A DNA stretch of 43,655 nucleotides, from assembly GCA_029093185.1 (NCBI GenBank), contig GCA_029093185.1_4348.1; one strand, written 5' to 3'. The position numbers and the translations under genes are program-made. The notes beneath the pieces are model-generated. The model did not search any database. It was not told the DNA's origin and was given only the letters and a program-made list of their open reading frames with translations. Shown in pieces: positions 18,724 through 27,805 of the stretch (position 1 is its first letter; each line of letters begins with the position of its first letter). Source of the stretch: a phage.

Positions 18724-19767
18724 ATGAGCTTACTTACATCCCTAATCAGCCATCAGATATGGCTGCAACGCACCGCATCCGGTGAGGTGAAAGACCTCAC
18801 GCCGTTCATTCAGGAGATAAGGGATGAAATCAAACGGCAGGTGCTGTTATTCGGTGACGACGGTCGCAGCACTGCGCGACTGAATAAACTGTTACGCGAC
18901 CTGGAAGAAGCACTAACCGGTATTACGGGTGACTGGCAAACAAAGCTAACAGACGACCTTAAGGAACTGGCGGCGTACGAGGCTGAGTGGAACGTAAAGA
19001 CACTGACCGCCAACGTAGACGCGGAATTTGTTACGCCTACCGCTGAGCAGGTATGGGCCGCTGCCGAGTTTCAACCATTATCATTGAGCGACAAGCCCGT
19101 TGATTTCACCAAGCTGATGTCTGGATGGGGCGAAACGGAAGTAGCACGTCTTGTAACTGGAGTTAAGATGGGCTTTGTGCAAGGTCAAACCACACGGCAG
19201 ATTGTTAAGAATGTTGTTGGCGCTGGTGGACTAGCCGACATCTCAGAACGTAACGCGACTACGGTAATCCGCACCGCGCTGTCCCACGTATCCAACGAGG
19301 CCCGTAACGAGACGTACCGCCAGAACGACGACATCATCGAGAAGTACGAGTGGGTGTCAACGCTTGACAGCCGCACCAGTACGATTTGCAGGGTCAGAGA
19401 CGGGATGACGTGGGAAATTGGTAAGGGGCCGATGCCCCCAGCCCATCCGAACTGCCGGTCGTGCACGGCTCCGGTAATCAGTTCCGAGTTCGACTTCCTC
19501 GATAAAGGCGCAAAACGCGCGGCTAAAGGCGCGGAAGGTGGCACTCAGGTAAGCGCAGACACCACTTACTACGAGTTCCTTAAACAACAACCGGCGTGGT
19601 TTCAGGACCAGGCGCTCGGCCCGGTGCGAGGTAAGATTTTCCGTAACAGCGGTATATCGCCGGAAGAGTTTCGCGTAATATCTGTAGATGGTTTCGGGAA
19701 TCCGCTCACGCTTAAGCAGATGGCGGAACTCGATAAACGTGTTGCTGATTATCTGAAAGGGGAATAA
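18724..19767 (+). CDS. Head morphogenesis protein (SPP1 gp7 / Mu F-like)
   Basis: 347 aa after the portal, the usual position for this family. Confidence 0.55.
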   Translation: MSLLTSLISHQIWLQRTASGEVKDLTPFIQEIRDEIKRQVLLFGDDGRSTARLNKLLRDLEEALTGITGDWQTKLTDDLKELAAYEAEWNVKTLTANVDAEFVTPTAEQVWAAAEFQPLSLSDKPVDFTKLMSGWGETEVARLVTGVKMGFVQGQTTRQIVKNVVGAGGLADISERNATTVIRTALSHVSNEARNETYRQNDDIIEKYEWVSTLDSRTSTICRVRDGMTWEIGKGPMPPAHPNCRSCTAPVISSEFDFLDKGAKRAAKGAEGGTQVSADTTYYEFLKQQPAWFQDQALGPVRGKIFRNSGISPEEFRVISVDGFGNPLTLKQMAELDKRVADYLKGE

Positions 19768-20228
19768 TGATGGGCTTTTTCAAAGTAACTGACGTACCGT
19801 CTCGTCGCGTAGTCCAGTACGCCCGCGTGTCTGGCTCTGGCGAGAACGTGGTATTTATTGAGGACGAAAGTGTACTCGGTACACCGGTAGATGATATGCC
19901 GTTTGCAGATAAAACCGGTATTGCGTTGCCCGCCGCCGGTATGCTTTATGAAATTCCGTATCTGGCGGACGCTGGCGACGTGTATTTCTCTGCGCAACCG
20001 CAGGACGCTGAACTGGCGGGCGGCAGCGCAACCATCACTGTCGAGGTTAAGGCAGGCAAAGCGCCGTATTCTCTGACCTGGTACAAAGACGGTAAGGAAG
20101 TGGTGAATGCGCCTGAGGAGGCTCTGTCTCTGACGGTTAATGCGGTCGGCGAATACTTCGTTAAAGTTACTGATGCCGATGGAGTAGAGGCGGTAAGCAA
20201 AGCGGCGAAGGTTACTAAGCCAGAATGA
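19767..20228 (+). CDS. Virion protein with C-terminal Ig-like domain
   Basis: 153 aa; YSLTWYKDGKEV...GEYFVKVTD resembles an immunoglobulin-like repeat. Confidence 0.5.
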   Translation: MMGFFKVTDVPSRRVVQYARVSGSGENVVFIEDESVLGTPVDDMPFADKTGIALPAAGMLYEIPYLADAGDVYFSAQPQDAELAGGSATITVEVKAGKAPYSLTWYKDGKEVVNAPEEALSLTVNAVGEYFVKVTDADGVEAVSKAAKVTKPE

Positions 20229-20231
20229 TAA

Positions 20232-20258
20232 AAGGCCCCATTATGGGGCCTTAGTTTT
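20232..20258. terminator. Bidirectional rho-independent terminator
   Basis: AAGGCCCC-ATTAT-GGGGCCTT flanked by a T-run on the plus strand and an A-run upstream; sits between convergent genes. Confidence 0.6.
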
Positions 20259-20461
20259 CAACGGAATCTTGTGTTTAAATCCTGCTCATGGACAACCCTC
20301 AGAACAGTGTCATAATCCCCGTATCTTCCAGGTTCAAATATATCTAATGCCTTGTAAGCAGACATTGCGTCAGGGAAAACCTGCAGAACCTTTTTAACCC
20401 GGCACAAGTCACCGTCGAACTCTTCATCGAACTCTTGAACTACTTCGCAAATTGCATACAT
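20258..20461 (-). CDS. Small acidic antisense moron protein
   Basis: 67 aa, about 14 acidic versus 8 basic residues; strong AGGAGGTG Shine-Dalgarno; own promoter and terminator. Confidence 0.6.
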   Translation of the reverse strand: MYAICEVVQEFDEEFDGDLCRVKKVLQVFPDAMSAYKALDIFEPGRYGDYDTVLRVVHEQDLNTRFR

Positions 20462-20488
20462 TTTTCACCTCCTGTTTAAGTTAACTGA

Positions 20489-20517
20489 ATAGTACCCTAT
20501 TATATTGGGGTGTGCAA
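20489..20517 (-). promoter_or_regulatory. Early-type promoter with operator palindrome driving the antisense moron
   Basis: Minus strand TTGCAC (rc of 20512-20517), 17 nt, TACTAT (rc of 20489-20494); TAATAG-GGTA-CTATTC. Confidence 0.55.
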
Positions 20518-20569
20518 ACTATTTATTTACGTATTCCAGTTATTCCTCCGAATTGTAAATGTTGGAATA

Positions 20570-20585
20570 AACTATTCGAATAGTT
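20570..20585. promoter_or_regulatory. Perfect 16-bp palindrome AACTATTCGAATAGTT
   Basis: Same half-sites (CTATTC/GAATAG) as the recurrent operator but abutting with no spacer; adjacent to a TTGACT hexamer. Confidence 0.4.
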
Positions 20586-20836
20586 GACTTTTCACTAAAA
20601 ATATGATAAGCTCCACCTGAGCTTGTGAAGTATGAACAAGCGACCGCGGCGCGGGCAGGTAACGGAGCGGGACGTAAGTCCTGAGTGTAGTTACGCTGAC
20701 GCGTTCGGAAGGGCCATACTCTATTGCTTGTGTAAAAAGTAACTGGTTTACTGAGATTACGCCGTTTCTATGTTTAAATGATAAGGACTAGCGCCCCGCT
20801 TTATGGCGGGGCTTTACTTATCGAGAAAGGGGAAAC

Positions 20837-21223
20837 ATGAATCTTAAAGCAACTGTCGTAGCAGGAGCATGTTTCATCATCCTGGTTTACGCACACGGCA
20901 TCTACCAGTATCGCAGCGGATGGAACGAAGGCCGGGCTAATCTCGTTTCGCAGCAACAGCAGAAAGCACAGGCTGAGTTAGCGAAGAAAACACAACGGCA
21001 GCAGCAGGATGAATCGAAGGCCGCCGCCGCTGACAACGAAGGCAAGACGAAATCAGAGGTGATTACCCGTGAAGTCGTTAAGTACATTAAAACGCCTGGT
21101 CGCAGCGTGTGCACTTTTGACCCTGAGCGCGTGCAGCTCAAGTCCCGCGCCGTCGCCAACGCCAATTCCATCCCCGGATACGACGATGATGCAGCCGCCG
21201 TGCAAACTGGCGCAGCCAAGTAG
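20837..21223 (+). CDS. i-spanin (Rz-like)
   Basis: 128 aa; N-terminal transmembrane segment (ATVVAGACFIILVYAHGIY) followed by a Gln/Ala-rich periplasmic region. Confidence 0.65.
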   Translation: MNLKATVVAGACFIILVYAHGIYQYRSGWNEGRANLVSQQQQKAQAELAKKTQRQQQDESKAAAADNEGKTKSEVITREVVKYIKTPGRSVCTFDPERVQLKSRAVANANSIPGYDDDAAAVQTGAAK

Positions 21224-21332
21224 CGACGCTGATGAGGATTTGGCCGTCGACGTTCAGAATGCTGAATGCGTACGGCAACTGAGACTGAAAGTGTTCATGT
21301 TGCAGGATTACGTGAGGAATATTCTGGAATAG
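21069..21332 (+). CDS. o-spanin (Rz1-like lipoprotein), overlapping the i-spanin in another frame
   Basis: 87 aa; signal peptide with lipobox LTLSAC, then a proline-rich mature region; starts inside the i-spanin gene and extends past it. Confidence 0.6.
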   Translation: MKSLSTLKRLVAACALLTLSACSSSPAPSPTPIPSPDTTMMQPPCKLAQPSSDADEDLAVDVQNAECVRQLRLKVFMLQDYVRNILE

Positions 21333-21414
21333 TTGCCTTGCATGTTGGAATAATTTATTCTTGACATGTAAATCCGGGTGGCCCGGATTCCAACGTCCAG
21401 GGGACATACTGACT

Positions 21415-22116
21415 ATGAATCGTTTTTTACGTTATCCGTTCCAGGAAGAAGCTGGAGCAGAAGATAAAGCTGGTGGCGGTGACGCTCCTAAAATGTTCAC
21501 CGCTGAAGAAGTTCAGGCGCTGATTGAGAAAGAAGTTGCCGGGCTTAAGGCTAATCAGGAAGCATTGTTGGCGGAGAAGAAAGAAGCCGCTCGCAAAGCA
21601 AAAGAGGCCGAAGAAGAACGGCAGCGCGCGCACCAGGAGGCGTTAAAAGTCGCTGGTAAGATGGATGAGTTCGAAAAGACGATTCGTAGCCAGTACGACC
21701 CTGTGTTAGCCGAGAAAGACGGTCGCATCTCCAGAATGGCAGAGCGTATCCTCGGCAGCGAACGTAAAGCGGTGCTAGGCTCTTTCGCGGGTGACTTTAT
21801 TACCCCAGAAGCAGTGGACATTCTTGCGCCGTTCGTTAAGACTGAGTTCGAAGGCGATGATGTGGTTACTAAGTTTGTTGGTGCAGACGGTAACGTAATC
21901 ACGACTGACCCGGAACAGTTCCGCAAATACCTGCGCGAACACAAGGCGTTTTCGCATTTGATCAAAGCAAATGCAGCTTCCGGCGGCGGGGCTTCCGGTA
22001 GCAAAGGCGGCGGGGCCGCACCAGCGTTTAAAGACATGAGTGAAGCAGAGCGTTTAGCCCTGTATAAATCGAACCCTGCCGAATTTGAACGGCAACTTAA
22101 AGCCCTGAGGAAATAA
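21415..22116 (+). CDS. Scaffolding protein
   Basis: Ala/Glu/Lys-rich coiled-coil sequence directly upstream of the major capsid gene; ATG 21415 with AGGGGA Shine-Dalgarno (ORF track starts at TTG 21361). Confidence 0.55.
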   Translation: MNRFLRYPFQEEAGAEDKAGGGDAPKMFTAEEVQALIEKEVAGLKANQEALLAEKKEAARKAKEAEEERQRAHQEALKVAGKMDEFEKTIRSQYDPVLAEKDGRISRMAERILGSERKAVLGSFAGDFITPEAVDILAPFVKTEFEGDDVVTKFVGADGNVITTDPEQFRKYLREHKAFSHLIKANAASGGGASGSKGGGAAPAFKDMSEAERLALYKSNPAEFERQLKALRK

Positions 22117-22118
22117 TA

Positions 22119-23168
22119 ATGGCAATTACCACTATCGGCGATATCGTAACTGGCAACATCCCGGTCCTGGCGTCTTATATGACCGAGGACCCGGTAGAAA
22201 AAACCGCGTTCTTCCAGTCTGGTATTCTGACCCCGACCCCGTACGCTGCCGAGATTGCCCGCGGCCCGTCCAACGTCGCTAATATTCCTTTCTGGAAAGC
22301 GATTGATACCTCTATCGAGCCGAACTACTCGAACGACGTATACCAGGACATCGCCACCCCGCGTAACGTGCAGACCGGCGAGATGATGGCGCGCGTTGCG
22401 TACCTGAACGAAGGTTTCGGTCAGGCGGATTTGACCGTTGATCTGACCAGCCAGAACCCGCTGCAATCCGTAGCGTCACGTCTGGATAACTTCTGGCAGC
22501 GTCAGGCACAACGCCGTCTGATTGCTACCGCGCTCGGGCTGTACAATGACAACGTAGCCGCTACCGACGCATACCACGAGCAGAATGACATGGTAATCGA
22601 CGTGTCTGCTACTCTGGGCTTCGATGCGGGCGCGTTCATCGACGCTACCCAGACTATGGGCGATGCTCTGATGGGCAACGGCGGTGAAGTGCTGGGGGCT
22701 ATCGCGATGCATAGCTTCGTTTATGCGCAGGCACGTAAGCAGCAGCTTATCGACTTCATCCGTGACGCGGACAACAACACCATGTTCGCCACCTACCAGG
22801 GCTACCGCGTGATTGTTGACGACAGCATGACCGTAGTCGGCACTGGCCCGACCCGTAAGTTCATCTCCATCATCTTCGGCAACGGCGCTATCGGTTACGG
22901 TGAAGGTTCTCCGTCCAACCCGCTGGAATACGAGCGCGAAGCGTCCCGCGGCAACGGCGGCGGCGTTGAAACCCTGTGGACCCGTAAGACCTGGTTGCTA
23001 CATCCGTTTGGTTACAGCTTCACCAGTGCAGTAATCACTGGCAACGGCACCGAGACTACCCCGCGCTCTGCTTCCTGGCAGGACCTGGCGAACGCCTCCA
23101 ACTGGAACCGTGTGGTTGACCGCAAGCACGTACCGATTGCCTTCCTGGTAACTGGTGTCGGTGCTTAA
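22119..23168 (+). CDS. Major capsid protein
   Basis: 349 aa after the scaffold, followed by a strong terminator. Confidence 0.7.
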   Translation: MAITTIGDIVTGNIPVLASYMTEDPVEKTAFFQSGILTPTPYAAEIARGPSNVANIPFWKAIDTSIEPNYSNDVYQDIATPRNVQTGEMMARVAYLNEGFGQADLTVDLTSQNPLQSVASRLDNFWQRQAQRRLIATALGLYNDNVAATDAYHEQNDMVIDVSATLGFDAGAFIDATQTMGDALMGNGGEVLGAIAMHSFVYAQARKQQLIDFIRDADNNTMFATYQGYRVIVDDSMTVVGTGPTRKFISIIFGNGAIGYGEGSPSNPLEYEREASRGNGGGVETLWTRKTWLLHPFGYSFTSAVITGNGTETTPRSASWQDLANASNWNRVVDRKHVPIAFLVTGVGA

Positions 23169-23183
23169 GGTTAAGCTATAATC

Positions 23184-23210
23184 GAGAGGGACTTCGGTCC
23201 CTCTTTTCAT
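23184..23210 (+). terminator. Rho-independent terminator after the major capsid gene
   Basis: AGAGGGAC-TTCG-GTCCCTCT followed by TTTCATTT. Confidence 0.6.
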
Positions 23211-23227
23211 TTACTAAGAGGTAAATT

Positions 23228-23527
23228 ATGGCTAAGACCGGAAAAGGCTTGCCGCGCAGCCTTCAGAATGTCGACTTCGGTGACTTTGATATCCCAGTCA
23301 CGCCTGCTACTACCAGCGTAGTTGGTGGGGTTAAAAAGTCAGCTCCTGTGACTGCACCTGGGGCCATTACCGCCGCCGCCGGGGTGCAGTCCGCCGCGGC
23401 ACCGACTAAGGAAGAGTTCGACGCCCTTGTAGCGGGGTACAACACACTCCTAACCAATGTTACCGCGCTGCGCGGTACCGTAGTAAAGCTGGTGACTGCG
23501 CTTAAAGGCGCAGGAACTGTAAGCTAA
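23228..23527 (+). CDS. Hypothetical virion protein
   Basis: 99 aa, Ala/Thr-rich. Confidence 0.5.
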   Translation: MAKTGKGLPRSLQNVDFGDFDIPVTPATTSVVGGVKKSAPVTAPGAITAAAGVQSAAAPTKEEFDALVAGYNTLLTNVTALRGTVVKLVTALKGAGTVS

Positions 23528-23539
23528 AGGAGCTTAAAA

Positions 23540-23890
23540 ATGGTTGATGTAATCAAACGTCGCATTACCGGTGTTTCTGATGATTCTCCTGCCGATGGTC
23601 AGGTTGAAATCGATATGGCGAATATCTCGCCAGCGTCTTTTTCTGCCGCGCTTGCGGCTACCACCGCAGTTACGGTGGGGCAGACTATGACTCTTACCGT
23701 AGTGGTAACTGGCGGTCTGGAGCCGTATTCCTACCAGTGGTACAAAGATAACAACGCCATCGACGGAGCCACCGCAGCTACCTATGCGAAGGCGTCCACT
23801 ACTACCGCAGATTCAGGCACGTATAAAGTGGTTGTTCACGATGTGTATGGTAATATTATCTCCAGCAGCACCGTAGCAACTGTGTCTTAA
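23540..23890 (+). CDS. Ig-like domain protein
   Basis: 116 aa; YSYQWYKDNNAIDGATAATYAKAS...DSGTYKVVVHD, an I-set-like motif. Confidence 0.55.
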   Translation: MVDVIKRRITGVSDDSPADGQVEIDMANISPASFSAALAATTAVTVGQTMTLTVVVTGGLEPYSYQWYKDNNAIDGATAATYAKASTTTADSGTYKVVVHDVYGNIISSSTVATVS

Positions 23891-24624: not shown

Positions 24625-25239
24625 ATGGCGAAGACTAAGTCAGAGATGTTTACCCTTATCGGAGCGAATCTTCCCGATAACACTACCGGGCTTATCACCC
24701 CCGCGAAATTACGCGAAGTAATGACGCAGATGGCTGACTCGCCTATTTACGCCACTCCGGGGTTTAAAGAGGTTGAAGTTCTCCGCGCTGCGTCTACCGT
24801 AATACAAGCGCCTACCGCGGTAGATACAGCATTGCAGTTAACTTTCGGCGCTGCGCAGGGTAGTGCATCCGGCCCGGTAATGATTAATGCCGCTGGCCTG
24901 GTTACATTTAACACCGCTGGCAACTACGCCGTTCGCATCAAGTTACAGGCGGGGCGCACAGGGGCCAGCGGCACGTCCATCCTGTTATCGCGCATTCTTC
25001 TTAACGGAGCTCAATACGGCTCACCAGCTGCCACGAAACTGGTAAGCGCCGATGTAACAATCCCGATTGAATCCCGCGTCGTTATTAACCCGACCGCAGG
25101 CCAGACGTTTGCCGTTCAGATTATGCGGGATAGCGCCGGGAGTAACTTCGGCGGCGTATACCCGCAAGCGGCTACGGTAACTGCATGGGGCACAGCACCA
25201 TCTGCGCTACTGGTTATTTCGAGACTGGAGGCTGCGTAA
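24625..25239 (+). CDS. Hypothetical virion structural protein
   Basis: 204-aa ORF in the head-tail joining region. Confidence 0.45.
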   Translation: MAKTKSEMFTLIGANLPDNTTGLITPAKLREVMTQMADSPIYATPGFKEVEVLRAASTVIQAPTAVDTALQLTFGAAQGSASGPVMINAAGLVTFNTAGNYAVRIKLQAGRTGASGTSILLSRILLNGAQYGSPAATKLVSADVTIPIESRVVINPTAGQTFAVQIMRDSAGSNFGGVYPQAATVTAWGTAPSALLVISRLEAA

Positions 25240-26223: not shown

Positions 26224-26636
26224 TGGGCTACTTTGAGGACTTAACAAAAGCGTTCGATGTTCCGCTGGTAGCCTTCGGAACCGCCAACGGCATCAAGGTT
26301 GCGCTTGAAAACATCGACGCGCCGACGTCAACCGATACGCCGTATCTGGCGAGTTACATGCTACTGGCAGATACCGAGCAGGCGGATTTGTTCTTCACTG
26401 AGCAACGCTCTGGTATTTATCAGGTAGACATTAACTACGCATCGGTGAAAGGTAGCGCGCCAATCAATAAAATGGCAGACTTACTTAACACGGCGTTTAA
26501 AGCAGGTAAGTCATTTTCGCGTAACGACATCTGCGCCGAGGTTCAATCGGTTAGCCTGGGGCCGCTGATTGTAGAAAACGGATGGGCCAAACGGCCATTG
26601 TCAATTAACTTTATAGCATTCACCAAGAGGCTGTGA
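26223..26636 (+). CDS. Putative tail terminator/completion protein
   Basis: 137 aa immediately upstream of the major tail protein. Confidence 0.4.
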   Translation: MGYFEDLTKAFDVPLVAFGTANGIKVALENIDAPTSTDTPYLASYMLLADTEQADLFFTEQRSGIYQVDINYASVKGSAPINKMADLLNTAFKAGKSFSRNDICAEVQSVSLGPLIVENGWAKRPLSINFIAFTKRL

Positions 26637-27805
26637 ATATGGCTACAACTCCTTTTAAGGGCGCGAATACCGCGCAATTCTATGTGGCGGAAGTGACCCC
26701 GGGTGTAACACCGACTAACCCGGTCTGGTCACCATTACGTAACACGGGCGGTGTTCCTGCCATTACCCGTGACACACTGACCTCCAACGAACTCGACGGC
26801 AGCCGTGAAACTACATCCATCCGCACCGGTAACAAACAGGTTAGCGGTGAATACGCAATTGAGCTTAGCTCTAAAAGCCAGGATGACTGGTTGGCAGGTG
26901 CTTTAGGCTCTACGTGGCAATCCGGTGTTTCTCTGCCAGGACTATCGATCACCGTCGCGCCCGCGGGCAAGACGTTCACACGCGCTACCGGCAGTTTTAT
27001 CACTGACGGAGTTGGGGTAGGCGACCTGATTGCGTTTACCGACTTAACAGGCGATAACGCAAAACCATTTATTGTTACCGCAGTAACGGCTACCGTTGTT
27101 ACTGGTGCAGGCATCCAACACACCCTGACCACCGAGACAAAAACTAGTAAGGCTAAAACTGGCGACACGCTGGAAACCGGTAACACATGTAAGACGTTCT
27201 CTATTCTCACCTGGTACAAAGGACAGTGCGGCGGGACTGACGCATACACACTAACCAAAGGTGTGGAAGTTTCCGGTTTCACCGTTGAGCAGGCCGTTAA
27301 CGCGATGGTTACAGGTAGCTTCCCGTTCATCGGGCGCAGCCAGGAGATTCTTACTACGCCGCCGTCTGGTTCCAACTTCTCCTCTGTCACGTTTGGTGAT
27401 GAGCCATTCTCCTCGGTTGACGTTTCTGTGTTTGACGGCTATACGCCGTTGCGTTGCGACAGCCTGACCATCACCAACGACAACAGCGCATCCGCGCAGT
27501 TCGAACTCGGCAACACTAACGTAGCGTTTGTAGAACGTAGCCGCGCGGCTAACACCTTCTCCATCTCCGGCAAGCTGTATGACATGGCGATGATTCAGAA
27601 GTTTATCAACGAGCAGCAGGTAGAGATTAACTCTATTCTGGCGGGGGTAAACGGGGCTATGTCTTTCAGTTTGAAACGTGCGGAGCTTACGGCAGTTACC
27701 CCAGAGATTGGCGGACCTGAGTCAATCACTCAGTCCATTGAAGGCCAGGCTACTGGCAACCAGTACCAGTCGTCTATTGTTATTCAGCGTATCACCTACG
27801 CATAA
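26633..27805 (+). CDS. Major tail protein
   Basis: 390 aa, Thr/Gly/Ser-rich, followed by a terminator. Confidence 0.6.
   Translation: MNMATTPFKGANTAQFYVAEVTPGVTPTNPVWSPLRNTGGVPAITRDTLTSNELDGSRETTSIRTGNKQVSGEYAIELSSKSQDDWLAGALGSTWQSGVSLPGLSITVAPAGKTFTRATGSFITDGVGVGDLIAFTDLTGDNAKPFIVTAVTATVVTGAGIQHTLTTETKTSKAKTGDTLETGNTCKTFSILTWYKGQCGGTDAYTLTKGVEVSGFTVEQAVNAMVTGSFPFIGRSQEILTTPPSGSNFSSVTFGDEPFSSVDVSVFDGYTPLRCDSLTITNDNSASAQFELGNTNVAFVERSRAANTFSISGKLYDMAMIQKFINEQQVEINSILAGVNGAMSFSLKRAELTAVTPEIGGPESITQSIEGQATGNQYQSSIVIQRITYA

Follow-up and report, generated by a model that had tools for sequence, protein, structure and literature searches.

The 43.6-kb stretch of phage DNA analysed here, referred to as the window, encodes two small proteins, P1 and P2, which probably serve as accessories that display an immunoglobulin (Ig)-like domain from an N-terminal anchor. 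P2 appears to be tied to the Jersey-type capsid of the phage, and P1 to be independent of it. This combined reading is held with moderate confidence. According to the proposed common plan, a lineage-specific N-terminal anchor would fix each protein to the particle, and a single cysteine-free, I-set-like Ig domain at the C-terminus would point outward. P2 would be a non-essential capsid decoration that is attached to the Jersey-type capsid shell by its short N-terminal arm; the tie to this shell is proposed because P2 is encoded just downstream of the capsid gene and is found only with that capsid. P1 would be a second, independent Ig-display protein. As its anchor appears independent of the capsid protein that a phage carries, its docking site would be either a feature that highly dissimilar HK97-fold capsids have in common or a component other than the capsid, for instance the portal vertex, neck, or tail.

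The window originates from a coliphage of the genus Kagunavirus (Guernseyvirinae) and shares 97-100% identity with the BASEL phages Bas70-76. Around P1, a stretch of 1.8 kb shows 100% identity to Bas70. The first part of the head module comprises the genes for the large terminase, portal, MuF, and P1, followed by a hairpin terminator. After this hairpin, a small minus-strand ORF, an Rz/Rz1-like spanin pair, the scaffold, and the major capsid protein are encoded. A second hairpin lies 3' of the capsid gene and is followed by a 99-aa 'head fiber' gene, P2, a 59-aa ORF, and the head-tail adaptor. The coordinates of the relevant features are compiled in Table 1.

Table 1. Features of the window that bear on P1 and P2.
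Feature	Coordinates	Strand	Remarks
Mu-F / SPP1 gp7-like head morphogenesis protein	18724..19767	+	in relatives, P1 always directly 3'
P1, 153 aa, N-terminal anchor (putative) and one C-terminal Ig-like domain	19767..20228	+	phrog_3945, E 1e-85
P1 N-terminal anchor domain (putative), aa 1-72	19767..19982	+	lineage-restricted; low-confidence model
P1 Ig-like domain, aa 73-153	19983..20225	+	WYKDG at nt 20079-20093
GC-rich terminator-like hairpin	20232..20252	.	directly 3' of the P1 stop; ends the terminase-portal-MuF-P1 run
Jersey-type major capsid protein	22119..23168	+	phrog_247; sole capsid type co-occurring with P2
Terminator-like hairpin	23184..23205	+	3' of the capsid gene, 5' of the 99-aa/P2 genes
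483-bp interval deleted in viable phage Bas71	23215..23697	.	TTAC microhomology at junction
99-aa 'head fiber / virion structural protein'	23228..23527	+	phrog_4366; between the capsid gene and P2; variable
P2, 116 aa, short conserved N-terminal arm and one Ig-like domain	23540..23890	+	phrog_4069
P2 N-terminal arm, aa 1-35	23540..23644	+	presumed anchor
P2 Ig-like domain, aa 36-116	23645..23887	+	WYKDN at nt 23738-23752; DSGTYKV

Both reading frames named in the initial annotation exist, and their translations are identical to those quoted there. P1 includes the stretch ...APYSLTWYKDGKEV..., and P2 includes ...PYSYQWYKDNNAIDG...DSGTYKVVVHD. The start of the P1 frame overlaps the stop codon of the MuF gene (TAATG). 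Translation may actually begin at the second ATG (19770), given that the homologues of phages Jersey and TS33 start with MGFF/MSGFF. P2 is preceded by a strong AAGGAG ribosome-binding site. An addition of the Ig domains by frameshifting was ruled out, as P1 and P2 each form an ORF of their own, complete with start codon and ribosome-binding site.

The two families are already known, and their presence is an ordinary finding: names have been given to both in PHROGs and in GenBank entries for nearly identical phages. Profile matches over the full length were obtained for P1 with phrog_3945 (E 1e-85, over 2-153/152) and for P2 with phrog_4069 (E 2.6e-59, over 1-116/116). NCBIfam holds no model for P1 or for P2. 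By tblastn against phage records, homologues of P1 were found in 490 records and homologues of P2 in 458. The records of Bas70-76 label both genes alike as "Hoc-like head decoration protein". Across all of these records the product names are inconsistent and include Hoc-like, capsid decoration, fibritin, neck whiskers, tail protein, and hypothetical, which indicates that nobody has located proteins of these families experimentally. The labels "Hoc-like", "fibritin", "neck whiskers", and "tail protein" on the approximately 490 records are all guesses from similarity.

A WYKDG motif had been attributed to both proteins. It is present in P1, but P2 carries WYKDN instead. In the six-frame translation of the window, the shorter motif WYKD occurs twice, at nt 20079 and 23738, with both occurrences inside the ORFs of P1 and P2. 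The C-terminal regions of the two proteins share 38% identity over 58 aa (E 8e-7). In searches against Pfam, P2 matches Ig_3 with 31.8 bits, above the gathering score of 30, and falls narrowly below the threshold for Ig_2 and I-set. P1 shows matches to Ig_3, I-set, PKD, Big_2, and BiPBP_C, every one of them below gathering (for instance, Ig_3 with 22.8 vs 30 and I-set with 15.2 vs 23.7). Big_2 (PF02368), one of the domain types suggested initially, did not hold: P1 reaches 15.7 bits against a cut-off of 22.8, and P2 has no match to it. Since P1 remains below the Pfam gathering scores, its assignment to the Ig fold rests instead on a profile search against PDB sequences and on AlphaFold2.

The profile built from P1 homologues retrieved the multi-Ig phage protein 9ncf_S from the PDB sequences with an E of 2e-9, together with titin Ig domains and the Ig domain of T5 pb10 (E 6.5e-6). 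P2 alone was sufficient to match 9ncf_S (E 4e-34), Sf14 gp20 (9c2d_S; E 6e-31), and pb10 (E 1e-12). AlphaFold2 predicts a beta-sandwich at residues 73-153 of P1 (block pLDDT ~70-90) and at residues ~32-116 of P2 (block pLDDT ~70-89). When the models were compared with the PDB by Foldseek, the best matches of both were the Ig domains of the N4 and Moo19 capsid decoration proteins, followed by eukaryotic I-set/C2 domains and the C-terminal domain of pb10. The probability reached 1.00 for many solved Ig domains with either model. The core tryptophan (W105 in P1, W67 in P2) and the Tyr-corner (G128-E-Y130 in P1, D91-S-G-T-Y95 in P2) are invariant in the alignments. Neither protein contains a cysteine, hence both domains lack the canonical disulfide, which is the common situation in Ig-like domains of phages. 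The claim of an Ig-like signature in both proteins is therefore backed by profile matches, AlphaFold2, and Foldseek; by sequence profile and predicted model, each protein is confirmed to end in a single Ig-like domain, an observation well above chance.

The first ~72 residues of P1 make up a separate, lineage-restricted domain. For the anchor of P1, AlphaFold2 with a shallow alignment gives a pLDDT of ~45. Foldseek superposes the P1 model on tandem Ig domains with an rmsd of 12-15 Å; these superpositions say nothing reliable on the anchor because of its low pLDDT. When 1.84 billion representative proteins were searched exhaustively by HMMER, the P1 anchor had 12 matches, about eight of which were judged true relatives by reading the sequences. 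At least three of the 12 were judged artefacts; of these, one is a cadherin-like repeat protein, one a repeat protein of low complexity, and one a frameshifted assembly chimera. No homology between the P1 anchor and the capsid-binding domain of T5 pb10 was detected in profile-sequence and profile-PDB alignments. The arm of P2 is nearly invariant in the alignment of close homologues and mostly of low confidence in the AlphaFold2 model, with residues 1-18 below a pLDDT of 50. This pattern is expected of an arm that becomes ordered only on its binding partner, and the arm is thus presumed to be an anchor. As far as alignments can tell, the anchors are lineage-specific and homology to known decoration proteins is confined to the Ig domains.

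A comparison with Salmonella phage Jersey provides information on selection. In both genes, pN is 0.22 and pS is 0.72-0.74. At the amino-acid level, the anchors are 74-77% identical between the window and Jersey, the Ig domains 62-63%, and the capsid protein 90%. The contrast between pN and pS indicates purifying selection and, together with the 490 and 458 homologous records, marks both genes as real. The pattern would fit real, expressed, surface-exposed accessory proteins.

Natural variants are informative with regard to the necessity of P2. Bas71 (LotteLoewe) is a viable environmental isolate and ~98-99% identical to the window in this region. A clean deletion in this phage removes the whole 99-aa gene along with the ribosome-binding site, start codon, and codons 1-53 of P2. 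The remnant of P2 is an anchorless fragment that is unable to form a complete Ig domain. Since Bas71 is viable with both genes disrupted, P2 and the 99-aa protein are dispensable for propagation under isolation and laboratory conditions, and the accessory character ascribed to P2 at the outset is borne out by this isolate. In DUEC01, the 99-aa gene is absent and a full-length P2 (86% identity) directly follows the capsid-gene terminator. This rules out a dependence of P2 on the 99-aa 'head fiber' protein. For P1, no natural knockout was encountered, as no relative without P1 is among the matches listed.

The initial annotation treated P1 and P2 as equivalent, which is contradicted by their inheritance. 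An alternative major capsid protein is encoded by kagunaviruses of the K1H type and by more distant relatives, among them K1H, Henuyfy11N, BUCT789, L/P/G AB-2017, UTI-CM001, and others, as well as Enterobacter phage phiEap-2 and Hafnia phage TS33. It shares 27-29% identity with the capsid protein of the window, according to the two examples examined in detail (27% in Henuyfy11N, 29% in TS33). Between the capsid and adaptor genes of Henuyfy11N and TS33, neither the 99-aa gene nor P2 is present. More distant copies of the alternative capsid protein, 77-79% identical to that of Henuyfy11N, occur in Serratia and Klebsiella phages. The number of records with P1 exceeds that with P2 by 15 in Escherichia, one in Shigella, and two in Enterobacter phages, and matches to the alternative capsid protein number exactly 15, one, and two in these groups. 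Hafnia phage TS33 likewise keeps P1 alongside the alternative capsid and has no P2 gene.

In the phages with the alternative capsid, P1 is kept and is always located directly 3' of MuF. Linkage alone could explain that P1 travels with MuF. In Henuyfy11N, P1 is 97% identical to that of the window and the flanking backbone genes are 90-96% identical, compared with 27% for the capsid protein. P1 of TS33 is 61% identical overall. The anchor of P1 has the same 75% identity to its counterparts in Jersey, where the capsid protein is 90% identical, and in TS33, where it is 29% identical. Because P2 is missing and P1 retained in the relatives with the alternative capsid, P2 appears to track the type of major capsid protein, whereas P1 appears to be inherited independently of it.

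Two views of the P1 docking site can be considered. In the more conventional one, P1 and P2 are both decorations of capsid hexamers in the manner of pb10 and Hoc, and the P1 anchor tolerates very different capsids. We consider this possible, albeit on the unlikely side. The PHROGs of both proteins are annotated as Hoc-like head decoration, the Ig domains are closest to those of capsid decoration proteins, and the free-standing small Ig proteins of phages known to us are capsid-bound. T5 pb10 in particular adjoins the portal gene and resembles P1 in length and plan, with the Ig part starting at about residue 84-87 in both. It is difficult to reconcile with this that the P1 anchor lacks homology to the capsid-binding domain of pb10, and that P1 persists under equal constraint with capsids of 27-29% identity, while P2 is lost at every capsid swap.

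Alternatively, P1 may dock on a non-capsid part, that is the portal vertex, neck, or tail tube, and display its Ig domain as a free-standing protein. This idea is tentative, and such docking would explain how P1 survived the wholesale replacement of the scaffold and capsid cassette. If true, P1 would act in trans as the equivalent of the Ig domains fused to the tail tube proteins of other siphophages. A narrower version, in which P1 is associated with the neck, collar, or tail and shows its Ig domain in trans in place of the cis Ig domain found on the tail tube proteins of many siphophages, strikes us as rather doubtful. In its favour, the inheritance of P1 goes along with that of the portal, MuF, adaptor, and tail backbone instead of that of the capsid protein, and no Pfam Ig domain is matched by the tail tube protein (26633..27805) of the phage. 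Furthermore, the Ig domain of P1 matches those of tail tubes, namely Sf11 gp24 (9occ_A) and the major tail proteins of phrog_158/853. Several records even name P1 homologues tail or neck whiskers protein, but these names are derived from similarity and not from experiments. The P1 gene also sits in the head block and not in the tail block, and no separate small Ig protein decorating a siphophage tail tube is known to us.

Turning to the favoured reading of two anchored Ig-display accessories, the presence of P1 and P2 in the virion, their attachment sites, and their adhesive function are inferred. Guernseyvirinae were described in a 2026 paper as 'a large structurally uncharacterized group' (PMC13243795), and no virion structure of this subfamily was found in the literature. 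For the jerseyvirus T102, the published report states that mass spectrometry yielded peptides of every functionally annotated ORF other than 5, 45, and 54 (PMC10194226). The T102 homologues of P1 and P2 are ORF17 (67% identity) and ORF22 (69%); as these are outside the three exceptions, both were presumably detected. The data set also contains the endolysin and, by the same reasoning, replication enzymes (PMC10194226), so that the detection of non-structural proteins makes it not specific for virions. In the fBC-Eco01 paper, the term "proteomic" refers to tree building only. STGO-35-1 was considered as a further relative, but it appears not to be one, as its gene layout differs and its authors call it an unclassified siphovirus.

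It is very unlikely that P1, P2, or both are absent from the virion and are instead intracellular or secreted products made late in infection. The proteome of phage eta would be compatible with this, since only bands of 38 kDa and above are given as analysed and the P1 homologue gp44 has a size of 16.6 kDa. Both genes are, however, part of the head module, proven virion proteins have Ig domains homologous to theirs, and the T102 mass spectrometry implies peptides of both homologues. Phage Ig-like domains occur almost only in structural proteins, as Fraser et al. reportedly noted in 2006. A chance occurrence of WYKD in P1 and P2 without a common fold can be dismissed almost entirely, for although P1 alone stays below every Pfam gathering score, this idea is refuted by the alignment of P1 with P2 (E 8e-7) and by the profile, Foldseek, and hhalign results, in which profile and structure searches converge on Ig for both. 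The six-frame translation of the window also has no further copy of the motif.

The reading of both proteins as accessory decorations of the virion, with which the analysis started, is consequently retained in part. It agrees with the Ig domains, the location in the head-morphogenesis region, and the public annotation of the families as head decoration, and the accessory behaviour it implies is supported for P2. The role of the exposed Ig domains would most likely be weak multivalent sticking to surface glycans or mucus, rather than a step that infection depends on; this is proposed from the analogy with T4 Hoc and T5 pb10 and from the general literature on phage Ig-like domains. P1 and P2 differ in how they are inherited, which is the one addition made here. 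This difference argues against a blanket label 'head decoration' for P1 and offers a testable handle on its location. P2 is naturally dispensable and probably surface-exposed, which would make it a candidate site for display or engineering; the BASEL authors regard this small phage genus as attractive for synthetic biology. The discovery value is small and the practical value modest, with the families already named publicly.

Several known systems share features with P1 and P2. The C-terminal Ig domains of siphophage tail tube proteins, such as Sf11 gp24 (PDB 9occ) and lambda gpV, are of the same kind and lie on the exterior of the particle. Their matches to P1 and P2 are weak (E 3e-4 to 5e-4), and they are fused to the tube protein, whereas P1 and P2 are separate small proteins from the head block. 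That structural proteins of phages can carry Ig-like domains has been established knowledge since the mid-2000s. The Ig-like decoration proteins N4 gp17 and that of Moo19 (PDB 9e99, 9lbz, 9d7z) were matched by Foldseek with E 4e-6 to 2e-5. These proteins differ in being larger and multi-domain, belong to podophages of the Schitoviridae, and share only 18-29% identity with P1 and P2.

The Hoc-like decoration protein gp20 of Shigella phage Sf14 (PDB 9c2d/9c3a) is the second-best solved-structure match to the Ig domain of P2, after the uncharacterised 9ncf_S, with its E of 6e-31 being summed over three repeats. It possesses a capsid-binding domain at its N-terminus and is located on hexamer centres (PMC11821841). 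Gp20 differs from P2 in its three tandem Ig domains, its length of 372 aa, its origin from a T=9 myophage, and its anchor. T4 Hoc, a dispensable outer capsid protein that shows Ig-like domains, is the origin of the label 'Hoc-like' and of the idea of mucus adherence. Its three Ig-like domains precede a C-terminal capsid-binding domain, in contrast to the single C-terminal Ig domain and N-terminal anchors of P1 and P2. The matches of P1 and P2 to RB49 Hoc (3shs) are limited to the Ig domain (E 0.0015-0.03). As neither P1 nor P2 has the architecture of Hoc, 'Hoc-like' is a loose label for them.

The closest parallel is T5 pb10 (T5.151; PDB 5lxk, 8zvi), which like P1 and P2 is small and consists of an N-terminal anchor part and one C-terminal Ig-like domain. 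This non-essential protein of 164 aa binds the capsid with its N-terminal part and is encoded in the head gene block, adjoining the portal gene. In hhalign, pb10 aligns with residues 31-104 of P2 (42% identity over 74 aa, probability 98.7) and with residues 87-142 of P1 (30% identity over 56 aa, probability 94.8). Nothing N-terminal of the Ig domains is aligned, and the N-terminal part of pb10 has no detectable similarity to the anchors of P1 and P2. Further differences are that the anchor of P2 comprises only ~35 residues and that the anchor of P1 appears indifferent to the type of capsid protein. Judged by their sequences, P1 and P2 would thus be closer in architecture to pb10 than to Hoc, with anchors that are unrelated.

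Bas71 LotteLoewe is a viable, near-identical isolate that has a 483-bp deletion (window 23215..23697), with a TTAC microhomology at the junction. The deletion removes the 99-aa 'head fiber' gene together with codons 1-53 of P2, the 116-aa Ig-domain protein, and thus makes Bas71 a natural double knockout of both. The 99-aa protein combines a conserved N-terminus with a heptad-like C-terminus and is fast-evolving, showing 41% identity to the longer version in Salmonella phage Jersey and a dN/dS of about 0.38. DUEC01, a relative that retains P2, lacks this gene.

Positions and context of the features discussed
Feature	Coordinates	Strand	Family	Context
Strong GC-rich hairpin	20232..20252			directly 3' of P1
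67-aa ORF	20258..20461	minus		in the slot between P1 and the spanins (about 20230..20830)
Rz/Rz1-like spanin gene pair, overlapping	20837..21332			within the head-morphogenesis block
Strong GC-rich hairpin	23184..23205			directly 3' of the capsid gene
99-aa 'head fiber / virion structural protein'	23228..23527		phrog_4366	
204-aa protein	24625..25239		phrog_3614 (unknown function)	between the adaptor and Neck1 genes

The hairpin behind the capsid gene would reduce transcriptional read-through into the 99-aa gene and P2, and the one behind P1, the 153-aa Ig-domain protein, looks bidirectional. In K1H-type Kagunaviruses, scaffold, capsid protein, 99-aa gene and P2 are swapped as a cassette (window about 21361..23890, compared with Henuyfy11N and Hafnia phage TS33), to which the scaffold contributes at least its C-terminal part. 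The alternative capsid protein of these phages is 27% identical to that of the window, as against 90-97% for the genes flanking the cassette. Their genomes measure about 40-41 kb rather than 43-45 kb. The 204-aa protein encoded further downstream weakly resembles the C-terminal domain of BclA as well as a fibre protein of a podophage, with sub-threshold matches in each case, and on this basis may belong to the collar or whiskers.

P1 is 61% identical to a 'p21 protein' (BFVD match O03899) from MB78, an old Salmonella phage. This identity suggests that MB78 has a Jersey-like head module, and p21 may already have been described in earlier literature. The Mu-F-like head morphogenesis gene directly preceding P1 (18724..19767) is free of the intein that interrupts it in some Kagunavirus relatives (fEg-Eco06, Snoke). 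In Jersey, terminase and portal are separated by a gene for a Hef-like homing endonuclease.

Relatives carry differing cargo in the slot that separates P1 from the spanins, including a DNA polymerase III sliding clamp, an adenine methyltransferase, a tRNA-Ser and hypothetical ORFs, which identifies this slot as an insertion hot spot. The spanin pair itself is set apart from the remaining lysis genes; the same separation was pointed out earlier for Serratia phage eta.
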